A stretch of 24,000 nucleotides of DNA, from positions 60,983 through 84,982 of the forward strand of contig CAMCVV010000001.1 in the NCBI GenBank assembly GCA_945881905.1, given 5' to 3'. The position numbers were made by a program, and so were the translations under genes. This document shows positions 3,018-13,390 of the stretch, piece by piece; position 1 is the stretch's first letter, and the number at the start of each line of letters is the position of its first letter. The notes under the pieces were generated by a model. That model did no database searches and was not told the DNA's origin. It saw only the letters and a list, made by a program, of their open reading frames with translations. Source of the stretch: Paenibacillus alvei (GTDB lineage: Bacteria; Bacillota; Bacilli; Paenibacillales; NBRC-103111).

Positions 3018-3644
3018 TCAAGATTTCTTTACACTGAATCGTACAGCGATCAATCCTAATGTTACTGCAATGATAGAAAGGATCAGAGTTAAATAAGATA
3101 TCCAGGGTGATGAAGCTTCGTCGGTCACAGCAGGCGAGTGCACATGACCATGAGAATCGGCTGATGCATCATCGGATTTGGGATTGACATACGTAGCTGA
3201 AGCAGGTGTATCCGAACCTTCAGCACCTACCCATTCGACAATGCTACCATCTTCGTAGGTTTGATAAGCTTTCCATGTGATTTGTTCTGCTGTATCGGTT
3301 ACTTTGCCCTGCATATGGAATTCAGTGAATTCTCCTGCTAAGAGACCTTTGCCTACAGTAGTCCATGTGATACTTGTGATGGTGCTGTCTGAATTTTTGG
3401 TGATCTCATAAGTCCAATCAGGTTTCGGTTCTACACGAGAGATGATCACATCTTGAATGGGGATTTCGATTTTGACTTCAGTTGTTGCAATATCCTTCTC
3501 AGAAGGGACACGTGCCGTGAACTTCTCATATGCGCCTTGGGTTGTTTCTTGAGGATATACGACGACATGAGCACTAGCTATATGACCTAGGCATATAGTG
3601 AATATCATCATAGAGACGAATAGTCCATTGATTTTTTTGTACAT
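3018..3644 (-). CDS. ycnI: YcnI-family (DUF1775) copper-binding membrane-anchored protein
   Basis: Signal peptide ending ASA, followed by HVVVYPQETTQGAYEKFTARVPSEKD, the N-terminal His and DUF1775 signature. His-rich linker (SHGHVH) and a C-terminal TM anchor. ATG at 3644 (MYKKING) lies 7 nt after GAGGTG; the 3659 start in the ORF track overlaps that SD. Confidence 0.85.
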   Translation of the reverse strand: MYKKINGLFVSMMIFTICLGHIASAHVVVYPQETTQGAYEKFTARVPSEKDIATTEVKIEIPIQDVIISRVEPKPDWTYEITKNSDSTITSITWTTVGKGLLAGEFTEFHMQGKVTDTAEQITWKAYQTYEDGSIVEWVGAEGSDTPASATYVNPKSDDASADSHGHVHSPAVTDEASSPWISYLTLILSIIAVTLGLIAVRFSVKKS

Positions 3645-4823: not shown

Positions 4824-4944
4824 GACTTATAGTCAGAGGCTTATGAGTAGGCCATGCATCAAGGATTTGTTTTCATTGGATAATAATGCTAAAATAATAT
4901 ATATACAGCATCGTAAAGTTTGAACTTGTGTAGAGGTGATGTCG

Positions 4945-5349
4945 ATGGAAACTAAATATTTCACAATTGAGCAAGCGAATGCACTGATCCCTATCTTACA
5001 TCAAGAAATCAGTAGGCTTCAATCTCTCAAACAAGATTTCACCTATAAGATGCAGGCTCTTCGGCAAATGAAGGAATCTGGTCATTCATCTCAGCATGCA
5101 ATTGATTCGGATCCTTATTTTATGCTAGAAGCAGAAATAGAATTTGTTCAACTTGAAGCAAAGAATTACCTGCATACGTTCACGCAAAGAGGTGTCGAAC
5201 TTAAAGATATTGATTTGGGTCTGGTAGATTTCCCATCTGTTCTCCACGGTACTGAAGTGTTGCTTTGTTGGAAGCTAGGTGAAGATAAGATCAGCTTCTA
5301 CCATTCGAGACATGATGGTTTTGCAGGGCGAAAACAAATTCCAGAGTAA
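4945..5349 (+). CDS. DUF2203-family protein (function unknown)
   Basis: FTIEQANALIPIL at the N-terminus and GVELKD.DLGLVDFPS...EVLLCWKLGE..I.FYH....GFAGRKQI at the C-terminus match my recollection of the DUF2203 pattern. ATG at 4945 lies 6 nt after GAGGTG. The ORF track start at 4936 overlaps the SD. Confidence 0.7.
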   Translation: METKYFTIEQANALIPILHQEISRLQSLKQDFTYKMQALRQMKESGHSSQHAIDSDPYFMLEAEIEFVQLEAKNYLHTFTQRGVELKDIDLGLVDFPSVLHGTEVLLCWKLGEDKISFYHSRHDGFAGRKQIPE

Positions 5350-5414: not shown

Positions 5415-7052
5415 GTGATGTGTATATTTTCAGTTTTACAGCGCCCGTTACCTGTGCTTTACGCACTTGTTGTGGGTTTATTTATTTGGATAGCACCAAC
5501 TATTGCAGGGGCTCATGCTACATTAGTTGAAGTCGAACCTGCACCTAATTCACAGTTCATCGAATCACCATCTATCGTTAAACTTTCGTTTAATGAACAG
5601 ATCGATCAAGGCCTATATTATATTCATGTATATAATCAAAGTGGCAGAAAAGTAACTTCAGCAGAAACGCAACTTAACGCGATGAAGACAGGTATAGAGC
5701 TAGACTTGCCCAAGCTAGATCCAGGTGTTTATGTGGTTAGTTATCATGTGATATCGTTAGATGGACATCCCATAAGCGGAAGTTACCCGATCACGGTCGG
5801 TTCTCTATCGATTTCTGAGGAAGAACCGATACTTCCTGGATTATCTACACATGAGCATAGCGGTACAGGTGCCTTTAGTATTTCGATGATGACACAATAC
5901 ATCACTAGAGCATTCTGGTATCTCACTATGACTGCGCTTGTCGGCTGGTTGATATGGCTTCGTTGGGTTCCTGTATCGATATCGAGAAACCCCTATTATC
6001 GTCAACACATCTTGCTACAGTTACAACGGGGGCATTTTATCGGGTTATTGTTTGTTGTTTTTACACATATGGAAGATTTATTGGGACGAAACAATATATC
6101 AGAAGTGCTGACCGTATTCACGTCTACAGGTGTCGGTATCAGTTGGTTAGGGATGCTTATTGCATCGTTGGTTGGTTTTTTTGTTTTAGGTCGGACGTGG
6201 ATTATAGACCTGACGTGGATCATTGCTTATATCGCAGCAAAAAGTATCAGTGGTCATGCGATTAGTTTTTCTCCGCAGTGGGTAACCGTAGGTTTAGATA
6301 TCATTCATTTATGCGCTGCAGCACTGTGGGTTAGTGGGTTAATATTCGTCTGGATTGCTTGGCGAAGACGTGAAGCAGATCGTTTGGAACTATTTCAGCG
6401 GTTCTCGCGTGTTGCTTTGATCTCTATCGCTGTCTTGAGTGTATCTGGCGTATTGACGCTATGGTTCTTCTTACCTAGCTTGATATATCTGACATATTCC
6501 ATGTGGGGTCTGTCCGTATTGATTAAAGTAGGATTCGTGTTATTGATTATATGTATCGCTACAGGGTTACGAACCTTTATTTCACGTGAAAGAGAGCAAA
6601 CGGTTCGCTTGTTATTGAAAGTAGACATTATAGGTATGCTAGCAATCATGATACTTGTAGGTTTCATGACGTATGCAGCACCTCTTCCCGCTAATGAGAA
6701 ACTGAATTGGCATGTGATGGGTGAAGAGATTCATATGACAGCAGATATCACACCTAAGGTACAAGGAACCAATACGTTCCAAGTGAAAGTTTGGTTAAGT
6801 GAAATGCGTGGAAAACCAAAAGAAGTCCAAATGATACTTAAATATCAAGATCAAGCGAATATGGCTGCGATCCGAGTTCCGATCGCAGTTTATGAGGATT
6901 CTGCTTTCGAAGAAAGTTTTGGTATGGTGAAGCATAGTTACCAAGCCGTGGGACCCTACCTTCCTTTCCGCGGGAAATATCAACTAGAAATACGCGTGAT
7001 GGATCTTGAGAATAACGAAACCGTGTATCAACAAGACTTGATTGTATATTAG
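5415..7052 (+). CDS. ycnJ: YcnJ-like copper transport protein (N-terminal CopC domain fused to a CopD membrane domain)
   Basis: Signal peptide ...IAGA, then HATLVEVEP (N-terminal His of CopC) and ISLDGHPISGSY (CopC DGHxxxG motif). About 8 TM helices follow (CopD-like), then a soluble C-terminal beta-rich domain. The 545-aa length resembles B. subtilis YcnJ. The start could be GTG 5415 or ATG 5418. Confidence 0.85.
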   Translation: MMCIFSVLQRPLPVLYALVVGLFIWIAPTIAGAHATLVEVEPAPNSQFIESPSIVKLSFNEQIDQGLYYIHVYNQSGRKVTSAETQLNAMKTGIELDLPKLDPGVYVVSYHVISLDGHPISGSYPITVGSLSISEEEPILPGLSTHEHSGTGAFSISMMTQYITRAFWYLTMTALVGWLIWLRWVPVSISRNPYYRQHILLQLQRGHFIGLLFVVFTHMEDLLGRNNISEVLTVFTSTGVGISWLGMLIASLVGFFVLGRTWIIDLTWIIAYIAAKSISGHAISFSPQWVTVGLDIIHLCAAALWVSGLIFVWIAWRRREADRLELFQRFSRVALISIAVLSVSGVLTLWFFLPSLIYLTYSMWGLSVLIKVGFVLLIICIATGLRTFISREREQTVRLLLKVDIIGMLAIMILVGFMTYAAPLPANEKLNWHVMGEEIHMTADITPKVQGTNTFQVKVWLSEMRGKPKEVQMILKYQDQANMAAIRVPIAVYEDSAFEESFGMVKHSYQAVGPYLPFRGKYQLEIRVMDLENNETVYQQDLIVY

Positions 7053-7070
7053 ATATTAGTTAGCGAGAGT

Positions 7071-7116
7071 AAGCCGCTAATGCAAATCGTGATGATTTGC
7101 ATAGTGGCTTTTTTGA
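7071..7116 (+). terminator. strong rho-independent terminator after the ycnJ-like gene
   Basis: An 18-bp stem: AAGCCGCTAATGCAAATC (7071-7088), loop GTGA, GATTTGCATAGTGGCTT (one G-U pair), running into a T-run. Confidence 0.8.
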
Positions 7117-7157
7117 CGTTTCAACGAATATTTCGTGAACATCTTCAGACACGGCGA

Positions 7158-7186
7158 TTAGAAATGGCTTGATAAGGAAATATAAT
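7158..7186 (+). promoter_or_regulatory. putative promoter of the bacteriocin structural gene
   Basis: TTAGAA (7158-7163), 17-nt spacer, perfect TATAAT (7181-7186). This would give a leader of about 100 nt before the ATG at 7296. Pattern match only. Confidence 0.4.
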
Positions 7187-7295
7187 GGGGTAGAGCAGGT
7201 ATTTTCGAGAACGAAAGCGCATATCAATAAGATATAGAAGAAGAACCACTGTGATCAGATGAAAATTAAGAATTCTATAGAAATGAGGAGATTGT

Positions 7296-7526
7296 ATGCA
7301 ACAGATCATAGGAGCACAATTCGAAGAATTAACCATGGATGAATTAATCCATATTGATGGGGGGACATGCACAACAACAGAATTAAGAACTGAGACGCTG
7401 CGTGGCATAATTAAAGGTGGTATTGCCGGTATGATGACGGGTTCAATCAAAGGGGCTTTGATTGGAGCAACGATTGGAGGACTTACGGAAGCTATAGATT
7501 ATAACTATACGTGCCGTAAGCAGTAG
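7296..7526 (+). CDS. class II bacteriocin precursor with double-glycine leader (23-aa leader plus 53-aa glycine-zipper core)
   Basis: SD GAGGAG lies 6 nt before the ATG. The leader MQQIIGAQFEELTMDELIHIDGG fits the GG-leader consensus at F-15, L-12, E-8, L-7, I-4, G-2 and G-1. The core is TCTTTELRTETLRGIIKGGIAGMMTGSIKGALIGATIGGLTEAIDYNYTCRKQ. A C39-ABC exporter and an HlyD protein are encoded directly downstream. Confidence 0.85.
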   Translation: MQQIIGAQFEELTMDELIHIDGGTCTTTELRTETLRGIIKGGIAGMMTGSIKGALIGATIGGLTEAIDYNYTCRKQ

Positions 7527-7651
7527 AACGTGCTATATAATTTCTGATAGCAAGGAATCGCTTCATAGGTTCCGACAGTGAAACCAGTCCACATCGAGGG
7601 ATTAGAGGAATGAGAAGTAATTCTCAAGTCAATAGGGAAACAATAATGTAT

Positions 7652-7695
7652 CCAGCAGAGGAAAGAAATCACTCTGCTGGTTGAAATTGTTTTAC
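7652..7695 (+). terminator. hairpin, possibly a leaky terminator or attenuator between the peptide gene and the export operon
   Basis: CCAGCAGAG (7652-7660), 11-nt loop, CTCTGCTGG (7672-7680), a perfect 9-bp stem. It is followed by TTGAAATTGTTTT, an interrupted T-tract. Confidence 0.45.
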
Positions 7696-7719
7696 AAAAT
7701 ATGGAAATTTTGATAAGAT
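7691..7719 (+). promoter_or_regulatory. putative promoter for the M48-ABC-HlyD operon
   Basis: TTTACA (7691-7696), 17-nt spacer ending in TGa, then TAAGAT (7714-7719), an extended -10-like element. Pattern match only. Confidence 0.3.
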
Positions 7720-7797
7720 AACAAATGTTTATGAAACCAATGTACCTAGCGGAGCATCATCCTTTAAGCATCAAAATGACGTAAGAGAGGATATAAA

Positions 7798-8943
7798 ATG
7801 ACAAATGAAATGATGATCATTACAGCTGTAATCACACTCGTATTAAATGCAATCACCCCTCTATTCATCAATCAAATCACCTTAAAGAAGTATGAATTAA
7901 CGCATTCTGCAGAAAAAGCGTTACACACGATGCAATCCTTGAAGCAGTATCTTCAAATTACATTTCTAGCATTAGGTGCATTTTCATTTACGCATGCGCT
8001 CATTCAATTGTCTGCACATAGTGCTCCAAGCAGGTGGATGTTTTATATCACCATCGTTGTATATAGTGCGATCATCATCGTCTATGGACAGCTTGTTTTT
8101 CATCGAGTTACGAAGAAAATACGACAAACCGAAACCACGTGGAAAGATGAATTTACAAATACGCTCAAAGATTTACTCATCATTTTGATACCTTTGATTA
8201 CCTACAAATTGTTGCGAACATACTTTGCAGGACCAGAGCATGATAATGAGTGGAAAGATTTTGGGGTTTACGTGATATTTCTAATGATTGTACAAATCGT
8301 TTATCCATTTTTAGTGTATGCGCAGTTGAGTGCGAGACCCATACAAGACAAAAAAATTCACAAGTCGATTGTTGCTTTCATGAAGCTACAGCATGAAAGC
8401 CGGATTGGTGTATATGAGTTTCCATCCAAGAAGAGTAAGAATGCTCATGCTTGGGTCAGTGGGATCATCATCAAAAAAATTTTTATTGCGGATTATCTGA
8501 TTGAGAAACTGACCATTGCAGAGTTACATGCTGTGATTGCACATGAAATTGGTCATTGCAAAAAAAACCATCAACTGATCAAATTAGGTTTATTTATCAT
8601 GATCTACCCGATGGTTATGATTTTGAATGAATGTTCGATTCGATTAGAAACATGGATTGGGGGTAGCTTGTCATTTATTTACGGTTTAGGTTTTTTTGTT
8701 TTTTTTCTATTGCTTTATTATGTATATATCTATCAAGCCGTATCTAGAATTCATGAGCACCAAGCTGACCAATATGTGTTGGAAGTTTGTGAGAAGGATG
8801 ATTTGACATCAGCGTTAAACAAACTTACGAAATTGAATAATCATATGACGACGTTTCATAGAATAACTGAAAAGTTTCAGTCGCATCCTTCACTTGAGAA
8901 AAGAATAACGTGGATTGAACAGAACAGCAGTTATTCCAGTTAA
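7798..8943 (+). CDS. polytopic membrane M48-family (Ste24/HtpX-type) zinc metallopeptidase; candidate bacteriocin immunity or maturation factor
   Basis: SD AGAGAGG lies 7 nt before the ATG. About 5 N-terminal TM helices come first. Then HAVIAHEIGHCKKNH (HExxH), two more TM helices, EHQADQYV (third zinc ligand, ExxAD) and SHPSLEKRI (M48 C-terminal motif). The stop lies 10 nt before the ABC transporter start. Confidence 0.8.
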   Translation: MTNEMMIITAVITLVLNAITPLFINQITLKKYELTHSAEKALHTMQSLKQYLQITFLALGAFSFTHALIQLSAHSAPSRWMFYITIVVYSAIIIVYGQLVFHRVTKKIRQTETTWKDEFTNTLKDLLIILIPLITYKLLRTYFAGPEHDNEWKDFGVYVIFLMIVQIVYPFLVYAQLSARPIQDKKIHKSIVAFMKLQHESRIGVYEFPSKKSKNAHAWVSGIIIKKIFIADYLIEKLTIAELHAVIAHEIGHCKKNHQLIKLGLFIMIYPMVMILNECSIRLETWIGGSLSFIYGLGFFVFFLLLYYVYIYQAVSRIHEHQADQYVLEVCEKDDLTSALNKLTKLNNHMTTFHRITEKFQSHPSLEKRITWIEQNSSYSS

Positions 8944-8953
8944 AGGAGGGCAC

Positions 8954-11155
8954 ATGTTTCGTAAGTATCCCTATGTTCAACAACAAGATCGTAAAGACTG
9001 CGGAGCAGCATGTCTTGCTAGCATATGTAAGTACCATGGACTACGTTATCCAATTTCTAGAATCCGGATGATGGCTAACACTGATTTACAAGGAAACAAC
9101 GTGTATGGGCTGCTCCAGGCCGCTCATAAACTTGGATTCACTGCGAAAGGCGTAAAGGGTAGTCCTGAAGATTTCTTTGAACCCTTCCCTTTACCTGCAA
9201 TTGCACATGTACTCATCGATCAATCGCTTCTGCATTATATCGTCATCTATAAAATCACGAAAAAAGAAATATTGATTGCAGATCCTGCCAAAGGGATTAT
9301 GAAATATCGTCCTAAAGATTTCTTCGCGATATGGTCAGGCGTTCTTATTTTGATGACGCCTTCTCCTGTGTTCCAAAAAGGAAATGAGCAACCACACATG
9401 CTTGCTCGTTTTTTTCAATGCATCATTCCACATCGAAAATTATTGGCACATATAGGTATGGCCACTTTACTTTATACGGGTTTAGGTATCGCTGGTGCAT
9501 TTTACTTTAGAGTTATTATCGATGAGATTGTACCTTATCAACTGATGAAGACGTTACATATGATTTCACTAGGTATGGTTGTGCTCACAATATGCAAAGT
9601 GATACTGCAAGCTTTCAGAAACTATCTATTACTATATCTCCATCAAAAACTTGATGTATCTTTGATCCTCGGGTATTACCATCATGTATTGCAATTGCCT
9701 ATGAACTTTTTTGCAACAAGAAAGTCGGGTGAAATCATTTCTCGGTTGCAAGATGCTTTTCATGTGCGGGATGCGATTTCTCAAGTCACCTTAACGATTA
9801 TGTTCGATATCATTATGATTGTAGCGGGAGGGATATTTCTTTTTGCACAAAATTCATATTTGTTTGTTGTTACTTTAATCGTCATACCTTTATATGCGAT
9901 CATCGTGATGGTGTTTCGTAAACCTTTTGAGCATAGAAATCGTATGCATATGGAAAAAAACGAACAATTGACTACATATCTCTTCGAGTCTATAAATGGT
10001 ATCGAAACGCTCAAAGCTTATCATGCAGAAGACCAAAGCACAAGTCAAACCGAATATAAATTCGTTGTTTTGCTGAGAAGTATGTTCAAGCTTGGTTTCA
10101 TTCATCAGCTACAATCATCAATGAAAGGCTTAGTCCAAGCACTCGGAGCCATAGCCATATTATGGATCGGTGCTTATCAAGTCATCCAAGGCGAAATCAC
10201 GATCGGTCAATTGATCACATTTCAAGCGTTGCTGTTTTACTTTCTCGAGCCGATACATAATGTGATTAATTTGCAACCCATCATTCAGACAGCAATCGTG
10301 GCTGCAGATCGCCTCGGAGAAATTCTTCAACTAGAGCAGGAGAAATCTGTGAATGAAGATCAAAAGCTGCAACCGCATAACTTGAAAGGAAACATTGACA
10401 TCGCACATATCGATTTCCGTTATGGAACACGTCAACTCGTATTAAAAAACATTCATCTACAGATTGCAAGCGGAGAGAAAGTTGCGCTTGTAGGAGAAAG
10501 TGGTTCTGGGAAAACAACGTTAATCAAGCTTCTGATGAATTTTTATCATGTAGAAAAAGGAACTATTTCATTTGGGGGATATCCTATTCAAGACATCCAT
10601 GTAGGTGTATTAAGACAAAAAATTGCATATCTTCCTCAAAATCATTTCTTTTTCAGTGGAACGATTCGAGATAATTTATGTTTGGGTATGGACGAGCCTA
10701 TCGCGCTTGAAAGGGTCATTGATGCAGCACGCAAAGCGCAAGCCGACGAATTTATTCATCGATTGCCGATGCGTTATGATACGATACTTGAGGAAAATGC
10801 ATCTAATCTATCAGGTGGACAAAAACAACGATTAGCGATTGCAAGAGCGATTCTAAAAAATCCTGACATTTTGATTATGGATGAGGCCACGAGTAACTTA
10901 GACACGTCGACAGAAAAAGCAATTTCAAGTATGATTCATCAATTTGATCGTATCACCACAATTATCATTGCTCATCGATTAAGTACGATCATGAAGTGTG
11001 ATCGTATCGTTGTCATTGAACAAGGAGAGATTATCGAGATAGGGACTCATCAAGAGTTAGTGAGTAAACAAGGTAAATATCATGAACTTTGGAAGCATCA
11101 ATTTCCGGATATGGATTCAGCTCATGAGGGCATTGGAAAGGTAGAAGCGGTATGA
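8954..11155 (+). CDS. bacteriocin-processing ABC transporter with N-terminal C39 peptidase domain (LagD/ComA/BlpA type)
   Basis: AAGGAGG lies 4 nt before the ATG at 8954. The N-terminus YVQQQDRKDCGAACLASI carries the C39 Gln and catalytic Cys. LLHYIVIY and ILIADP supply the candidate His and Asp. Six TM helices follow, then Walker A GESGSGKTT, signature LSGGQKQR, Walker B ILIMDEATS and H-loop IIAHRL. Confidence 0.93.
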   Translation: MFRKYPYVQQQDRKDCGAACLASICKYHGLRYPISRIRMMANTDLQGNNVYGLLQAAHKLGFTAKGVKGSPEDFFEPFPLPAIAHVLIDQSLLHYIVIYKITKKEILIADPAKGIMKYRPKDFFAIWSGVLILMTPSPVFQKGNEQPHMLARFFQCIIPHRKLLAHIGMATLLYTGLGIAGAFYFRVIIDEIVPYQLMKTLHMISLGMVVLTICKVILQAFRNYLLLYLHQKLDVSLILGYYHHVLQLPMNFFATRKSGEIISRLQDAFHVRDAISQVTLTIMFDIIMIVAGGIFLFAQNSYLFVVTLIVIPLYAIIVMVFRKPFEHRNRMHMEKNEQLTTYLFESINGIETLKAYHAEDQSTSQTEYKFVVLLRSMFKLGFIHQLQSSMKGLVQALGAIAILWIGAYQVIQGEITIGQLITFQALLFYFLEPIHNVINLQPIIQTAIVAADRLGEILQLEQEKSVNEDQKLQPHNLKGNIDIAHIDFRYGTRQLVLKNIHLQIASGEKVALVGESGSGKTTLIKLLMNFYHVEKGTISFGGYPIQDIHVGVLRQKIAYLPQNHFFFSGTIRDNLCLGMDEPIALERVIDAARKAQADEFIHRLPMRYDTILEENASNLSGGQKQRLAIARAILKNPDILIMDEATSNLDTSTEKAISSMIHQFDRITTIIIAHRLSTIMKCDRIVVIEQGEIIEIGTHQELVSKQGKYHELWKHQFPDMDSAHEGIGKVEAV

Positions 11156-12480
11156 ATATTCGATTCAAATCGTTTGAACAAATGACAGATAGTAGAGAAA
11201 TGCTTGAAGCACAAGCACATCCTTGTGTTCTCTTTTTTATCTATATGGGCGGCTTGTTCGTTGTGATTGCGGGGTTATGGAGTTATTTCGCAGAAATCGA
11301 GGATATCGTGAAAGCAGAAGGCATTGTTGAGCTTAATCAACAAGTCGTGACTGTGCGAAATAACATAGCTGGACAAGTTGAGCACATGTATTATTCTCAA
11401 AATCAAGAAGTCTCGCAAGGAGAGCTCCTGCTTAGATTTAATCAACAAGATCTTGAAGTGGAGTTGGAGATGTTGAAAGTTGATTACCACAATATGTATA
11501 CTGAGCTCGAAGCGTTAACCCAATTGATCGCCAATCCAAGATATCTGCATCGCCAAGAAGGGGAAGGCAATTCCAGTTATTTTCGAAGCGTCGAATTTCG
11601 TCTGCAAGCTAACCATCAAGCGGGTGAATATGTGCAAGAAACGCTTCGGAGGTTACACCTTTTAGGGAGTTCTACGAGCCAAGAAGGAAATCCAATATTT
11701 GAAGGTAATCACGAATATCACTATAAATACCAAGATTACCTCTTGAAGAAAAAGAAAATTCAACACCACATCACCCGTATTGAACAAGATCTTCACGCAG
11801 CACTCACCACTTACACACCAATCGAAGAATTCAATCGTATGAATCAACAACGAGAGGAAGCTATCTTAGACTTAGAGACATTTACCAATGGATTCGAACT
11901 TCATCTTCAACAAGAGATCTCCTCAGAAAAGATGAAAATGAAGCAAATTCACTTTGATCGTGAACAGATTTTTGCAGAGATTCAAGCATGGATAAGGGAA
12001 CGCGAACCCCGATTACACGATATACTTAATCGCATCCAACACATTGGACAACAGCAACTCAATCGCGAGCTAAGAGCCTCAACTGCCGGGACAGTTCATG
12101 TATTGAGAGAAACGCATGTAGGGGATTTGTTATCTGTTGGTGAAGAGCTCATTACAATCGTTCCAGCTCATCAAGAAGAATATGAGGTTAGCTTATCGAT
12201 AACTTCGCATCAAGACTATAGGAGAATCAGTCTAGGTAAAACTGTGCAATTTCAGTTTGTAGCGTTGCCGCATCTTACATATAGACAAGCAACAGGAACC
12301 ATTATCAGTAAGCAACGAGGTGTGCTTAAAGCTAGACTGCTCGTTACACCTGATGATCAACGGGAAGGAGGGACGGAAATTAGTTTGCAACAAGGCATGG
12401 TTACACAAGCACGTATTCATATTGGGAATACGCGCATCTGGCATTATGTGTTGGCCAAAATGAATTTACGTGAACCATGA
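11152..12480 (+). CDS. HlyD-family bacteriocin secretion accessory protein (LcnD/ComB-like)
   Basis: ATGA start/stop overlap with the ABC gene. A single N-terminal TM (VLFFIYMGGLFVVIAGLWSYF) is followed by a lipoyl-like hairpin segment (KAEGIVE...GQV...V.QGELLL.F), a long coiled-coil region and a C-terminal beta-barrel-like segment. Confidence 0.85.
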   Translation: MNIRFKSFEQMTDSREMLEAQAHPCVLFFIYMGGLFVVIAGLWSYFAEIEDIVKAEGIVELNQQVVTVRNNIAGQVEHMYYSQNQEVSQGELLLRFNQQDLEVELEMLKVDYHNMYTELEALTQLIANPRYLHRQEGEGNSSYFRSVEFRLQANHQAGEYVQETLRRLHLLGSSTSQEGNPIFEGNHEYHYKYQDYLLKKKKIQHHITRIEQDLHAALTTYTPIEEFNRMNQQREEAILDLETFTNGFELHLQQEISSEKMKMKQIHFDREQIFAEIQAWIREREPRLHDILNRIQHIGQQQLNRELRASTAGTVHVLRETHVGDLLSVGEELITIVPAHQEEYEVSLSITSHQDYRRISLGKTVQFQFVALPHLTYRQATGTIISKQRGVLKARLLVTPDDQREGGTEISLQQGMVTQARIHIGNTRIWHYVLAKMNLREP

Positions 12481-12491
12481 GACAGTTGCGA

Positions 12492-12968
12492 TTAATTTTT
12501 GAAATAAGTTCGTATTTCTTCAATTCGCTTGCGGTTTAAGCCCATGTCTGAATAACCTACGCGAGAAGCTGAACGAAAGTCAATTCGTGCTTGTTCTTTA
12601 TGAATGAGAAACTCCACATCATCCACATAACGAATCCATTGCGTTGTAAACTCAGCGCGAATGTAGTTATCGAATTCTTCCACAATCACAGCATGTGGCA
12701 GGGCAGATAAGATTTCGATGATACGTTGTTTCGGTTCTGTGATCGAAGTAGGAACAGTGATTGGATCCGCATAATGCAAGGTGTCAGTGGGCTCACTATG
12801 AGATGATATGCAGTTAGGCGAAGTTTTGCAAGGCGCTAATTGACCATCTGTGACCCCTGAAGTAGTTCCTGGAGGGAAACTGTTTTGCAGCGTACCGCTT
12901 TTTGCATATAATCGTATGATCACGAATAATACCAAAGCGATCGCGATCAAGATGAGAAGCCATTTCAT
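12492..12968 (-). CDS. DUF1499-family protein with N-terminal membrane anchor
   Basis: ATG at 12968 lies 8 nt after AAGGAGG. MKWLLILIAIALVLFVII is a TM or signal segment. PCKTSPNCISS, YVDDVEF and FRSASRVGYSDMGLNRKRIEEIR match my recollection of the DUF1499 pattern. The 239-aa ORF in the track is an upstream over-extension. Confidence 0.8.
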   Translation of the reverse strand: MKWLLILIAIALVLFVIIRLYAKSGTLQNSFPPGTTSGVTDGQLAPCKTSPNCISSHSEPTDTLHYADPITVPTSITEPKQRIIEILSALPHAVIVEEFDNYIRAEFTTQWIRYVDDVEFLIHKEQARIDFRSASRVGYSDMGLNRKRIEEIRTYFKN

Positions 12969-13053
12969 AGATGTTTCCTCCTTGATTGATTTCGTTTCAT
13001 TATACATATCATAACGTGATATGTAAGTTTTGAAAAGCATACACAATCTGAAC

Positions 13054-13082
13054 TTGCAACAGCAGCAGATGTTGCATATAAT
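13054..13082 (+). promoter_or_regulatory. pheST promoter
   Basis: TTGCAA (13054-13059), 17-nt spacer, perfect TATAAT (13077-13082), positioned just upstream of the T-box leader. Confidence 0.55.
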
Positions 13083-13089
13083 GCAAGTA

Positions 13090-13390
13090 GATACATATAA
13101 AAAATGTGATGATAGAGAAAAGTAAATAGTGCATCTGTACAGGGAGAGAAAACCTAGATTGAGAGTTTTCTCATGGATTAAGGCTATTGAAGTTCGCTCT
13201 TGAACAGTCATTTGAAGAAGTAACGTCTTGCGATTCGTTACTTTAGTAGATGGTACCGGATAATTTCCGTTATGCGAATGAAGTGAGATTAAAATCGCTT
13301 GTTCATATTAGAGGACACAATAAGCATTTTAACTAACAAGGGTGGTAACGCGGCTTTTTCGTCCCTTAAGGGAGAAAGGGTTTTTTATGT
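13090..13390 (+). promoter_or_regulatory. T-box riboswitch leader (Phe specifier) controlling pheS-pheT
   Basis: Elements found in order: GA/K-turn motif (GTGATGA), AGTA box, AGAGA-like box (CAGGGAGAG), F-box CCGTTA (13267-13272) and T-box core AAGGGTGGTAACGCGG (13338-13353). The terminator is CCCTT..AAGGG plus TTTTTT (13362-13386). The candidate specifier UUC at 13193-13195 sits in GAAG-UUC-G just 5' of the stem-closing CUCU. Confidence 0.85.

Follow-up and report, generated by a model that had tools for sequence, protein, structure and literature searches.

A Ste24-type M48 metalloprotease gene is the partner of glycine-rich class II bacteriocin genes and probably encodes a self-protection or processing factor

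An M48 metalloprotease gene in a bacteriocin locus of Paenibacillus alvei is the dedicated partner of one glycine-rich, GG-leader family of class II bacteriocins (Bacteriocin_IIc). Because a gene for a predicted Ste24-fold protease lies directly after the bacteriocin gene, and its relatives are placed in the same way in other bacteria, sequence and context indicate that its product is probably a previously undescribed factor for self-protection against, or processing of, peptides of this family. The best-supported reading, to which we assign a probability of roughly one half, is that the protease is the self-protection determinant of the producer and acts by proteolysis. In this reading, two points are inferred: the protease acts on the bacteriocin, and this cleavage makes the producer immune.

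The M48 gene is part of a four-gene locus within the window, by which we mean the entire 24,000-nucleotide stretch of DNA that was analyzed. It is the sole gene of the four that represents neither the peptide nor the export machinery, which counts in favor of a role in immunity. The features of the locus are as follows.

7296..7526, + strand: GG-leader bacteriocin precursor, 76 aa, with leader MQQIIGAQFEELTMDELIHIDGG and a 53-aa glycine-rich core, TCTTTELRTE...AIDYNYTCRKQ
7652..7680, + strand: hairpin, then a U-rich stretch, CCAGCAGAG...CUCUGCUGG, between the peptide gene and the M48 gene
7691..7719, + strand: promoter-like site upstream of the M48 gene (TTTACA, 17 nt, TAAGAT, TG extension; 9/12 matches in a consensus scan)
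7798..8943, + strand: M48 protease gene, the feature in question, for a predicted Ste24-fold zinc metalloprotease of 381 aa with 7 predicted transmembrane (TM) helices and catalytic residues H249/E250/H253/E320/H363
8954..11155, + strand: C39-ABC peptide cleavage/export transporter, 733 aa, with an N-terminal C39 peptidase domain
11152..12480, + strand: HlyD/LcnD-like secretion accessory gene, 442 aa, overlapping the ABC stop by 4 nt

The original prediction described an M48 protein of 381 aa carrying HEIGH, EHQAD and HPSLEKRI, and these motifs are indeed read in the translation of the open reading frame at 7798-8943, which begins with ATG and has a GAGAGG ribosome-binding site upstream. They occur as H249-E-I-G-H253, E320-H-Q-A-D324 and H363-P-S-L-E-K-R369-I, and so provide every element of the M48 zinc site, that is, HExxH, a downstream Glu ligand and a C-terminal His motif. 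Pfam Peptidase_M48 (PF01435) matches residues 192-374 with 79 bits against a cutoff of 20.3 (E 5.2e-22). The motifs are far beyond chance, because orthologues at 53% and 48% identity keep every motif residue and because H249, E250, H253, E320, A323, D324, H363 and R369 are invariant in all 39 aligned members of the subfamily. Conservation also extends to the N-terminal TM domain, including E39, R109, P132 and P170.

The AlphaFold model of the protein (pLDDT 91.6, pTM 0.90) has five long N-terminal helices, at residues 3-35, 38-75, 79-109, 115-143 and 151-176. Two further TM helices (258-287 and 293-330) are placed between HExxH and the Glu ligand. Thus, the approximately five N-terminal TM helices that had been proposed are seen in the model, but the total is seven. 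The modeled protein stops right after the catalytic domain and lacks an extracellular sensor domain. By the positive-inside rule (K+R counts), its catalytic domain is predicted to lie on the cytoplasmic side of the membrane.

In Foldseek searches, the best full-length PDB matches of the model are Ste24p (4il3) and ZMPSTE24 (4aw6/2ypt), with TM-scores of 0.59-0.64 and E values of 1e-9 to 1e-8, and the model has the seven-TM helical barrel of these enzymes (MEROPS M48A, CAAX prenyl protease 1). The subfamily profile matches Ste24p at E 3.2e-31, in an alignment that starts only at about profile position 120. In this alignment, HExxH, E..AD and HPS line up with the Ste24p stretches AHEIGHW, HEYQAD and SHPTLAER, such that the Glu ligand and the C-terminal HPS/HPT His motif correspond. 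We conclude that the window protein is of Ste24 type by its predicted fold, which is modeled with high confidence, and that its catalytic residues are intact.

The protein nevertheless differs from Ste24p and ZMPSTE24 in several respects. It is only 17-20% identical to them in structural alignments, is shorter (381 aa versus 420-480 aa) and is encoded in a bacteriocin locus instead of among housekeeping genes. The Ste24 N-terminal domain Peptidase_M48_N (PF16491) was not detected in the window protein or its close relatives, and is carried by more distant matches. Also, no prenylation machinery is encoded in the locus, nor is a CaaX motif common to the partner peptides. The window peptide does end in C-R-K-Q, with Cys at -4, and in this resembles a Ste24 substrate, but a Cys at this position is absent from the other six partner peptides. 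A CaaX-type mechanism is therefore unlikely, since the other peptides end in GWW, FWW, IFK or FKK and the window encodes no prenyltransferase.

Three other family assignments were considered and rejected. HtpX (M48B) and BlaR1/MecR1 (M56) resemble the window protein in having an HExxH...E zinc-protease core among TM helices. However, HtpX has four TM helices, not the seven predicted here, and the best HtpX model in NCBIfam gives 37.1 bits against a cutoff of 245 (all models, 21-37 versus 245-422). The earlier description "Ste24/HtpX-type" therefore survives in its first half but not in its second. BlaR1 carries a sensor domain at its C-terminus and has BlaI as its partner, whereas the window locus provides neither a sensor domain nor a repressor gene, and BlaR1 structures match the model with a Foldseek E value of 0.06 and a TM-score of 0.29. 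Finally, the protein has no match to CPBP/Abi (PF02517), and merely occupies the same kind of position as proteins of that family.

Pfam and NCBIfam bear out the neighbors that had been assigned previously, namely a Bacteriocin_IIc precursor, a C39-ABC exporter and an HlyD/LcnD-like gene. The precursor matches Bacteriocin_IIc at E 4.6e-9 (36.6 bits, cutoff 27.1) and an HMM of seven M48-adjacent peptides at E 4.7e-30, a value that is partly circular because the window peptide is itself in the HMM. Rather than marking a CaaX box, Cys50 of its core more likely pairs with Cys2 in a disulfide. The exporter matches Peptidase_C39 (1e-40), ABC_membrane (1e-51) and ABC_tran (2e-36) in Pfam, and TIGR01193 in NCBIfam with 699.7 bits (cutoff 523.85). 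Its start is the ATG at 8954, behind AAAGGAGG, on the basis of a public gene call and the in-frame translation MFRKYPYVQQQDRKDCGAAC; the TTG at 8915, given in the list of open reading frames, is not the real start. The accessory protein matches HlyD_3 (4e-6) in Pfam, has a precomputed BSH_LcnD match, and gives sub-cutoff NCBIfam matches to type_I_hlyD (1.6e-24) and bacteriocin_acc (3.8e-16). The stop of the M48 gene at 8943 and the exporter ATG are 10 nt apart, with no terminator-like site between them (8943-8954), an arrangement that is consistent with a shared operon.

The intergenic region upstream of the M48 gene carries a structured element. The hairpin at 7652-7680 folds, in a 60-nt segment, with -22.8 kcal/mol (z = -6.0; 0/200 shuffles fold as well), and an equivalent hairpin is located just 3' of the peptide gene in five other M48-bacteriocin loci, in one of which (L086) a small gene lies between the hairpin and the M48 gene. 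A simple terminator scan gave no call at this hairpin. The hairpin is probably an attenuator or leaky terminator that separates the peptide and M48 genes. The promoter-like site at 7691-7719 is weak evidence, because such sites are no commoner in the region than in shuffled sequence. There is no small TM open reading frame in 7527-7797, between the peptide and M48 genes, and no CPBP/Abi or other known immunity family was found elsewhere in the 24 kb.

The original prediction called for a survey of M48 genes near C39-ABC loci, and in the sampled loci such an association is seen. The subfamily of the window protein is rare and coherent, with about 50 clusters (50% identity) among 1.84 billion protein representatives at E<=1e-30; at E<=1e-10, about 1,500 clusters are reached. 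Among 12 sampled subfamily clusters with readable neighborhoods, eight have a C39-ABC exporter in the locus. By comparison, a C39 domain is nearby in 0/80 generic M48 loci. These came from a metagenome scan with a 10-sequence alignment, which gave mostly loci of this generic kind, and they served as background instead of as subfamily members (Fisher's exact p = 5e-9; p = 3e-7 when the three orthologues are counted once). A three-orthologue pattern scan of 185,579 species-representative genomes found no relative, and tblastn with subfamily member P0058 found no match in 72,556 plasmids. A word-indexed search with the subfamily alignment regained just 1/36 added members. A genome scan with PheS placed the source of the window in Paenibacillaceae, with at most 78% identity.

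M48 is linked in a conserved manner to the peptide gene and not to the exporter. A Bacteriocin_IIc gene with a glycine-rich product precedes the M48 gene on the same strand in all six loci with readable upstream DNA. In five of these (the window, L089, L094, L176 and L178), M48 is the next gene, 94-349 nt away, which is the position of an immunity gene, on the same strand and immediately downstream of the structural gene; in the sixth, L086, an 80-aa TM gene intervenes. In contrast, the exporter can lie downstream of M48, upstream of it or 5 kb away: it is upstream with other genes between in L089 and L176, and is 5 kb off in L094. The peptides that adjoin M48 genes belong to one homologous family by HMM, for which NCBIfam yields only sub-threshold lactobin A/cerein 7B matches. 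Their cores start right after GG, with differing ends. In the same loci, M48 does not accompany GG-leader peptides of other types.

The proposal that an M48 gene occupies the immunity slot of a class II locus gains further support from Thermoanaerobacter uzonensis. This organism has four bacteriocin genes, each followed by a gene for a membrane protein, in the layout bacteriocin-131-aa TM, bacteriocin-M48, bacteriocin-106-aa TM and bacteriocin-125-aa TM. M48 thus fills the slot that is held by small membrane proteins behind the other three bacteriocin genes, and the CPBP and M48 kinds are found side by side. This homologue is from strain DSM 18761 (FQUR01000016.1), and another homologue is found in the culturable Paenibacillus woosongensis (CP150207.1, at about 4.79-4.81 Mb). 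In a rough neighbor-joining tree, all seven sampled members of the clade of the window protein are linked to bacteriocin loci. Four subfamily members have neither a peptide gene nor an exporter gene in their vicinity and fall mostly in the sister clade; these stand-alone members may have a different, general function instead of being "orphan immunity" genes.

For immunity by a membrane protease there is a precedent, in that CPBP/Abi "CAAX protease" proteins, which are unrelated to M48 and are also cited in PMC9298176, confer immunity to class II bacteriocins. Such CPBP/Abi (Rce1-like, PF02517) proteins reportedly include PlnI, PlnLR and SkkI, in work by Kjos et al. from 2010. Like these, the window protein is a polytopic membrane protein with protease motifs whose gene lies beside a GG-leader class II structural gene. 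Unlike these, it belongs to an unrelated fold and family, and its immunity role is a proposal, whereas immunity has been shown for several CPBP proteins.

If the M48 protease confers immunity, peptide that has partitioned into the membrane of the producer would pass by lateral openings into the chamber within the membrane, in the manner of Ste24 substrates. The peptide could come by re-entry from outside, or by escape from export on the inner leaflet, and would be cut at the cytoplasm-facing zinc site before pores assemble. Since the active site is predicted to be cytoplasmic and bacteriocins attack from outside, a substrate that spans the membrane or lies at the inner leaflet must be assumed. 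The more specific hypothesis is that a Ste24-fold chamber protease represents a new immunity class for glycine-zipper class II bacteriocins, that it cuts the membrane-embedded peptide and that it arose independently of CPBP/Abi; we hold this tentatively, at a little under even odds.

Some observations count against immunity. Divergence of the M48 proteins and divergence of the peptides are not significantly correlated (rho = 0.41, p = 0.13, 15 non-independent pairs), and the M48 proteins are 30-38% identical even where their partner peptides are 65-72% identical. Also, some loci contain other candidate immunity genes, namely the gene for the 80-aa TM protein in L086, a pair of CPBP-like genes immediately downstream of M48 in L094, and genes for 153-157-aa DUF5085/GyrI-like proteins in four M48 loci.

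These additional candidates would be easier to understand if M48 were instead a maturation or production factor that processes the precursor or a signaling peptide so that active bacteriocin appears. We regard this explanation as unlikely, although it is the alternative that survives best. It is favored by the tight and specific adjacency of M48 to one peptide family, and by an intact active site predicted to be on the cytoplasmic side, where the precursor is made. Published precedents also exist. M48 genes are found beside the structural genes of circular bacteriocins, in altitudin S-type clusters (bioRxiv 10.1101/2025.10.31.685828) and in two clusters of another study (PMC8659200), and maturation or leader processing has been proposed for the M48 genes of circular-bacteriocin clusters (bioRxiv 10.1101/2025.10.31.685828), which counts against immunity. 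As in the window, a conserved M48 gene adjoins the structural gene in altitudin S-type clusters, among them that of B. altitudinis ECC22 (CP137888), which otherwise have no dedicated immunity gene. However, these circular bacteriocins have neither a GG leader nor a C39 exporter. The description of the window gene as uncharacterized must be narrowed in this light. In full-text literature searches, we found no report of M48 in class II or GG-leader bacteriocin loci, and the bacteriocin-linked M48 genes noted previously are, as far as we found, in circular-bacteriocin clusters only.

A further precedent is SilX, a membrane protease that, like the window protein, is encoded in a class II bacteriocin locus, but belongs to the CPBP family. 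In the Angicin/Sil locus of Streptococcus anginosus, SilX is needed for production via the SilCR signal peptide, not for immunity (PMC9298176). By analogy, it warns against deriving function solely from position and counts against the immunity reading. Several points nonetheless oppose maturation. The C39 domain of the exporter already removes the leader after GG, and the partner peptides have no obvious common extra pro-sequence or cleavage site. A maturation enzyme would have no substrate in the stand-alone members, which have no peptide gene nearby, and this counts for immunity. Moreover, if M48 serves maturation, the window locus is left without any immunity gene.

Somewhat less probable again is a housekeeping role at the exporter or membrane, in which M48 clears peptide that jams the C39-ABC exporter or is misinserted from inside, so that production is kept but no resistance to external peptide results. 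Ste24/ZMPSTE24 clears clogged translocons, and HtpX performs membrane-protein quality control. By analogy with this established unclogging role, the Ste24 fold, the predicted cytoplasm-facing site and the short distance from the M48 gene to the exporter gene in the window would fit. On the other hand, the conserved neighbor is the peptide gene, with the exporter apart from M48 in L089, L176 and L094, and the other GG-leader peptide types in the same loci have no M48 partner. To our knowledge, such an enzyme is absent from most functional C39-ABC bacteriocin loci.

Non-catalytic immunity is more doubtful still. Here the seven-TM body would sequester the peptide, or the protein would be a decoy or resistant paralogue of a housekeeping protease that serves as receptor. 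RseP is the receptor for LsbB-type bacteriocins, and other class II bacteriocins are known to have receptor-type immunity, which by analogy, together with the conserved N-terminal TM domain, lends the idea some plausibility. However, the zinc ligands and catalytic Glu are invariant among members just 21-31% identical to the window protein, which argues for selection on catalysis, and the subfamily is distant from housekeeping HtpX and canonical Ste24 and so is no recent duplicate of the target.

A BlaR1/MecR1-like transducer, which would detect membrane-located peptide and induce the locus by cleaving a repressor, is very improbable: several subfamily members have weak precomputed Peptidase_M56 matches, and some loci have regulators (GerE-type in L089 and L094, HTH_3 in L086 and L178), but the protein ends at its catalytic domain, matches BlaR1 far more weakly than Ste24, and is accompanied by a BlaI/MecI-type repressor in no locus and by no regulator gene at all in the window.

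If M48 is the self-protection determinant, the two "CAAX protease" folds would each have been co-opted for this task, and immunity by proteolysis of membrane-inserted peptide would then look like a general principle. An unrelated protease family in the genomic slot that protease-like CPBP/Abi membrane proteins also occupy would argue that proteolysis itself is what protects. The question is testable, because the active site is intact and strictly conserved, and because crystal structures and established assays exist for the Ste24 fold. If M48 is instead a maturation factor, it would represent an unrecognized processing step for GG-leader peptides, and would bear on the role of M48 in circular-bacteriocin clusters. 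Present tools may annotate bacteriocin loci of this kind as having no immunity gene, and with an immunity role, M48 would serve as a marker when genomes of spore-forming Firmicutes are mined for glycine-rich class II bacteriocins. Such a role would also give bacterial Ste24 homologues a concrete physiological substrate.

The M48 gene lies among the following features of the window.

7296-7526, bacteriocin precursor gene, 76 aa (Pfam Bacteriocin_IIc, E 4.6e-9)
7652-7680, strong hairpin lying between the peptide and M48 genes (60-nt fold -22.8 kcal/mol, z = -6.0)
7691-7719, promoter-like site between the same two genes
7798-8943, + strand, M48 gene, 381 aa, ATG start with a GAGAGG ribosome-binding site 5' of it
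8954-11155, C39-peptidase ABC exporter gene (NCBIfam TIGR01193, 699.7 bits vs cutoff 523.85)
11152-12480, gene for a HlyD/LcnD-like accessory protein

These Pfam and NCBIfam assignments match the neighbors named in the original prediction. The precursor has a leader ending in ...HIDGG and a glycine-rich core of 53 aa. The true exporter start is the ATG at 8954, which is preceded by AAAGGAGG and lies 10 nt past the M48 stop; the ORF tool's TTG at 8915 was rejected. A terminator scan of the window found no terminator-like site between the M48, ABC and HlyD-like genes. The M48 translation contains AHEIGH (H249, E250, H253), EHQAD (E320) and HPSLEKRI (H363, R369), that is, all three motifs of the catalytic set originally claimed, and Pfam Peptidase_M48 matches residues 192-374 (E 5.2e-22, 79 bits vs gathering score 20.3).

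A confident AlphaFold model, built from an alignment of 39 family members (pLDDT 91.6, pTM 0.90), begins with five long N-terminal helices; a small domain with beta structure then connects to the HExxH helix, and two further long helices precede the Glu ligand. The predicted TM helices thus number seven in total: the roughly five proposed earlier correspond to the N-terminal helices, but two more precede the Glu ligand. Among PDB structures searched with Foldseek, only Ste24p (4il3) and ZMPSTE24 (4aw6, 2ypt, 6bh8, 5syt) matched over the full length, with E-values of 1e-9 to 2e-6 and TM-scores of about 0.6; BlaR1 ranked next (E 0.06). The family profile also finds Ste24p by sequence (E 3.2e-31), and all three catalytic motifs line up. 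From the numbers of Lys and Arg residues in the loops, the N-terminus is predicted to be external and the HExxH loop (83 residues) and C-terminal domain to be cytoplasmic, which is the arrangement of Ste24. The Pfam Ste24 N-terminal domain (PF16491) was not detected in the window protein, which makes it part of a divergent lineage of the Ste24 fold rather than a canonical Ste24. All NCBIfam HtpX equivalog models scored 21-37 bits against cutoffs of 245-422, and the protein is therefore not an HtpX. Of the earlier label "Ste24/HtpX-type", only the first half is retained: the protein belongs to family M48, with a Ste24-type fold, and is not a member of CPBP/Abi, HtpX or BlaR1.

Besides the M48 protein itself, a word-indexed search of 5.8 billion proteins returned only two close matches, relatives with 53% and 48% identity. 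When 1.84 billion representatives were scanned exhaustively with HMMER, using a profile of these three proteins, 50 clusters were found at E<=1e-30; among the matches listed at this threshold, most are 350-430 aa and align nearly end to end, and a minority are truncated. A word-indexed search with the 39-sequence alignment recovered only 1 of the 36 members found by the exhaustive scan, so counts of rare families from indexed searches alone are underestimates. Apart from the two orthologues, the aligned members are 21-31% identical to the window protein, and H249, E250, H253, E320, A323, D324, L340, H363 and R369 are invariant across all 39. On these data the subfamily is coherent, rare and under selection for catalysis.

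Gene neighborhoods could be read for 12 distinct family clusters, including that of the window. Eight of these reside in bacteriocin loci and four are stand-alone.

Neighborhoods of M48-subfamily protein clusters (P-numbers)
P0002, 53%-identical orthologue at the window's chromosomal site: M48, C39-ABC, then DUF1499 and pheS; no HlyD/LcnD-like gene
P0003: M48, then C39-ABC, with a C39 domain 58% identical to the window's
P0056 (three metagenome contigs): 157-aa protein, two double-glycine (GG)-leader glycine-rich peptides, 80-aa TM protein, M48, C39-ABC
P0242 (Paenibacillus woosongensis): GerE regulator, C39-ABC, LcnD, second GG-leader peptide with ATP-grasp gene, Bacteriocin_IIc, M48, 157-aa protein
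P0058: C39-ABC, 64-aa TM protein, 157-aa DUF5085 protein, Bacteriocin_IIc, M48
P0079: integrase, 153-aa protein, Bacteriocin_IIc, M48, C39-ABC, LcnD
Stand-alone: P0064 (Evansella alkalicola); P0059, P0062 and P0096 (metagenome or MAG contigs)

A survey of M48 and C39-ABC co-occurrence had been proposed as a check on the original prediction; for the 12 clusters sampled here its outcome is favorable, in that a C39 domain was found near none of 80 generic-M48 metagenome loci (659 kb total; Fisher's exact test for the C39 link, p = 5e-9, or 3e-7 with the three same-site orthologues counted as one), although these background loci, with a median length of 7.8 kb, are shorter and the contrast is therefore somewhat less clean. 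In a rough neighbor-joining tree, which has long branches and no support values, all seven sampled members of the window's clade are in bacteriocin loci, whereas four of five sampled sister-group members stand alone; this pattern strengthens the bacteriocin association for the window's clade. The peptide HMM found no peptide relatives near the four stand-alone members. The Evansella gene and the gene for an AraC regulator that carries a GyrI-like domain are divergently oriented, and directly 5' of P0059 (contig L095, 6226-7821) is a gene for a 531-aa membrane-anchored protein with an HEYTHH motif, a helical-repeat C-terminus and no Pfam match on record.

The original prediction tied the M48 gene to the exporter. 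Across loci, however, exporter position varies (directly downstream of M48, 5 kb downstream, or upstream at a distance of several genes), and it is the peptide gene that is conserved as the partner. Wherever upstream DNA is available (six loci), the M48 and Bacteriocin_IIc genes share a strand, and in five M48 is the very next gene 3', at 94-349 nt; in the sixth (P0056), the 80-aa TM gene intervenes. The adjacent peptides are homologous by the peptide HMM. Their common type has xWSWKEFGKS followed by GxxxG-rich repeats and AAY..GWW; the window peptide ends in ...YNYTCRKQ and those of P0056 in ...YDYIFK/YDYFKK. Other GG-leader peptides within these loci have no M48 partner.

Most informative is the Thermoanaerobacter uzonensis locus (P0240). 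A bacteriocin gene followed by a gene for a small polytopic membrane protein is the classic bacteriocin/immunity layout, and three of its four bacteriocin genes are each followed by such a gene (131, 106 and 125 aa). Behind the fourth, a GWW-type gene, M48 takes the place of the small protein, in support of the proposed placement of M48 in the immunity slot.

Cysteine occurs just twice in the window core: at core position 2, and four residues from the C-terminus (-4, in CRKQ), where it formally occupies a CaaX position. A CaaX-type substrate was rejected as a feature of the family, as partner peptides elsewhere have no Cys at that position; because they lack this Cys arrangement, a head-to-tail disulfide in the window core seems the more likely explanation.

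Two loci carry further peptide systems. In P. woosongensis (L089), a GG-leader peptide of 93 aa (5759-6040), which carries about four TTLALGEE-like repeats, adjoins an ATP-grasp ligase (6144-7310) and looks like a graspetide precursor that has the C39 exporter in common with the bacteriocin. On the P0058 contig (L176), a radical-SAM/SPASM protein (2-775) and a 78-aa GG-leader peptide (791-1027) constitute a second RiPP system in the same exporter neighborhood as the M48-bacteriocin pair; more small GG-leader ORFs occur at 8090-8721.

In each of these six loci, a strong hairpin, usually with a T-rich tail, lies directly 3' of the bacteriocin gene (-17 to -27 kcal/mol in a 45-nt window). Outside the window, these hairpins are at approximately 7908-7946 (L089), 7917-7946 (L094, T. 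uzonensis), 4944-4986 (L176), 3601-3627 (L178, P0079) and 1996-2030 (L086, P0056). Except in L086, where the 80-aa TM gene intervenes, the hairpin is also directly 5' of M48. From this arrangement, we suggest that a leaky terminator is conserved here and sets transcript levels of the peptide gene relative to those of the accessory genes.

The window locus is flanked by housekeeping genes: 5' by a nickel/cobalt transporter (NicO), DUF2203 and copCD, and 3' by DUF1499, a T-box leader, pheS and pheT. The window's PheS shares at most 78% identity with PheS of Paenibacillus species, which places the source among uncultured Paenibacillaceae. Because the locus (about 7050-12490) is slightly AT-richer than its flanks (36-39% vs 40-43% GC), and because no bacteriocin locus or C39 domain was found in the pheS neighborhoods of 80 related Paenibacillaceae and Bacillaceae genomes, it looks like a lineage-specific insertion. 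Paenibacillus planticolens has unrelated genes between copCD and pheS. The T-box leader (13100-13369, 5' of pheS; Rfam RF00230, 94.4 bits vs gathering score 93) is expected before Firmicutes aminoacyl-tRNA synthetase operons. The ORF at 12492-13211 (- strand) is listed with 239 aa, which is too long; an internal Met (MKWLLILIAIALV...) is the most likely start of the DUF1499 protein, which would then comprise about 158 aa, including a single N-terminal TM anchor, as in the public gene calls.

We favor self-protection by proteolysis as the function of the M48 protein, with a probability of roughly one-half. In the Ste24/ZMPSTE24 chamber, membrane-associated peptides enter by lateral openings and are cut at a cytoplasm-facing zinc site; a glycine-zipper peptide inserted in the producer membrane, from either side, would be a plausible M48 substrate. 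For this reading we count the gene position, the specific pairing with a single peptide family, the invariance of the active site and the stand-alone copies, although the last, as an argument from orphan immunity genes, is weakened because stand-alone proteins may do something else. A separate immunity gene would have told against the original prediction, and the 24-kb window contains no candidate other than M48. Against self-protection we count the predicted cytoplasm-facing active site; the alternative candidates at some loci (the 80-aa TM protein, CPBP-like genes and DUF5085/GyrI-like proteins); M48/peptide co-divergence that is not significant (rho 0.41, p 0.13); and the precedent of SilX, a membrane protease of a bacteriocin locus that serves production and not immunity (PMC9298176).

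A soluble 153-157-aa protein, absent from the window, occurs in four M48-bacteriocin loci (L086, 775-1248; L089, 9199-9672; L176, 4005-4478; L178, 2578-3039). In Pfam it matches DUF5085 best (E 5.6e-7) and a GyrI-like family faintly; it may act in the cytoplasm as a second factor for protection or binding.

Our full-text literature search found no report of M48 proteases in GG-leader or class II bacteriocin loci, as had been anticipated, but M48 genes in clusters for circular bacteriocins were already on record. A genome-mining paper describes them in two such clusters (PMC8659200), and in the altitudin S cluster an M48 gene adjoins the structural gene, with no dedicated immunity gene and a proposed maturation role (bioRxiv 10.1101/2025.10.31.685828). 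The functional resemblance of the window protein to CPBP/Abi immunity proteins is in position only. The observation is thus confirmed and the original reading supported, with corrections to the class and TM count, the partner gene and the prior notice in circular bacteriocins. Culturable strains with M48 homologues exist, and the window protein would take its place among the protease-like membrane proteins that accompany bacteriocin genes.
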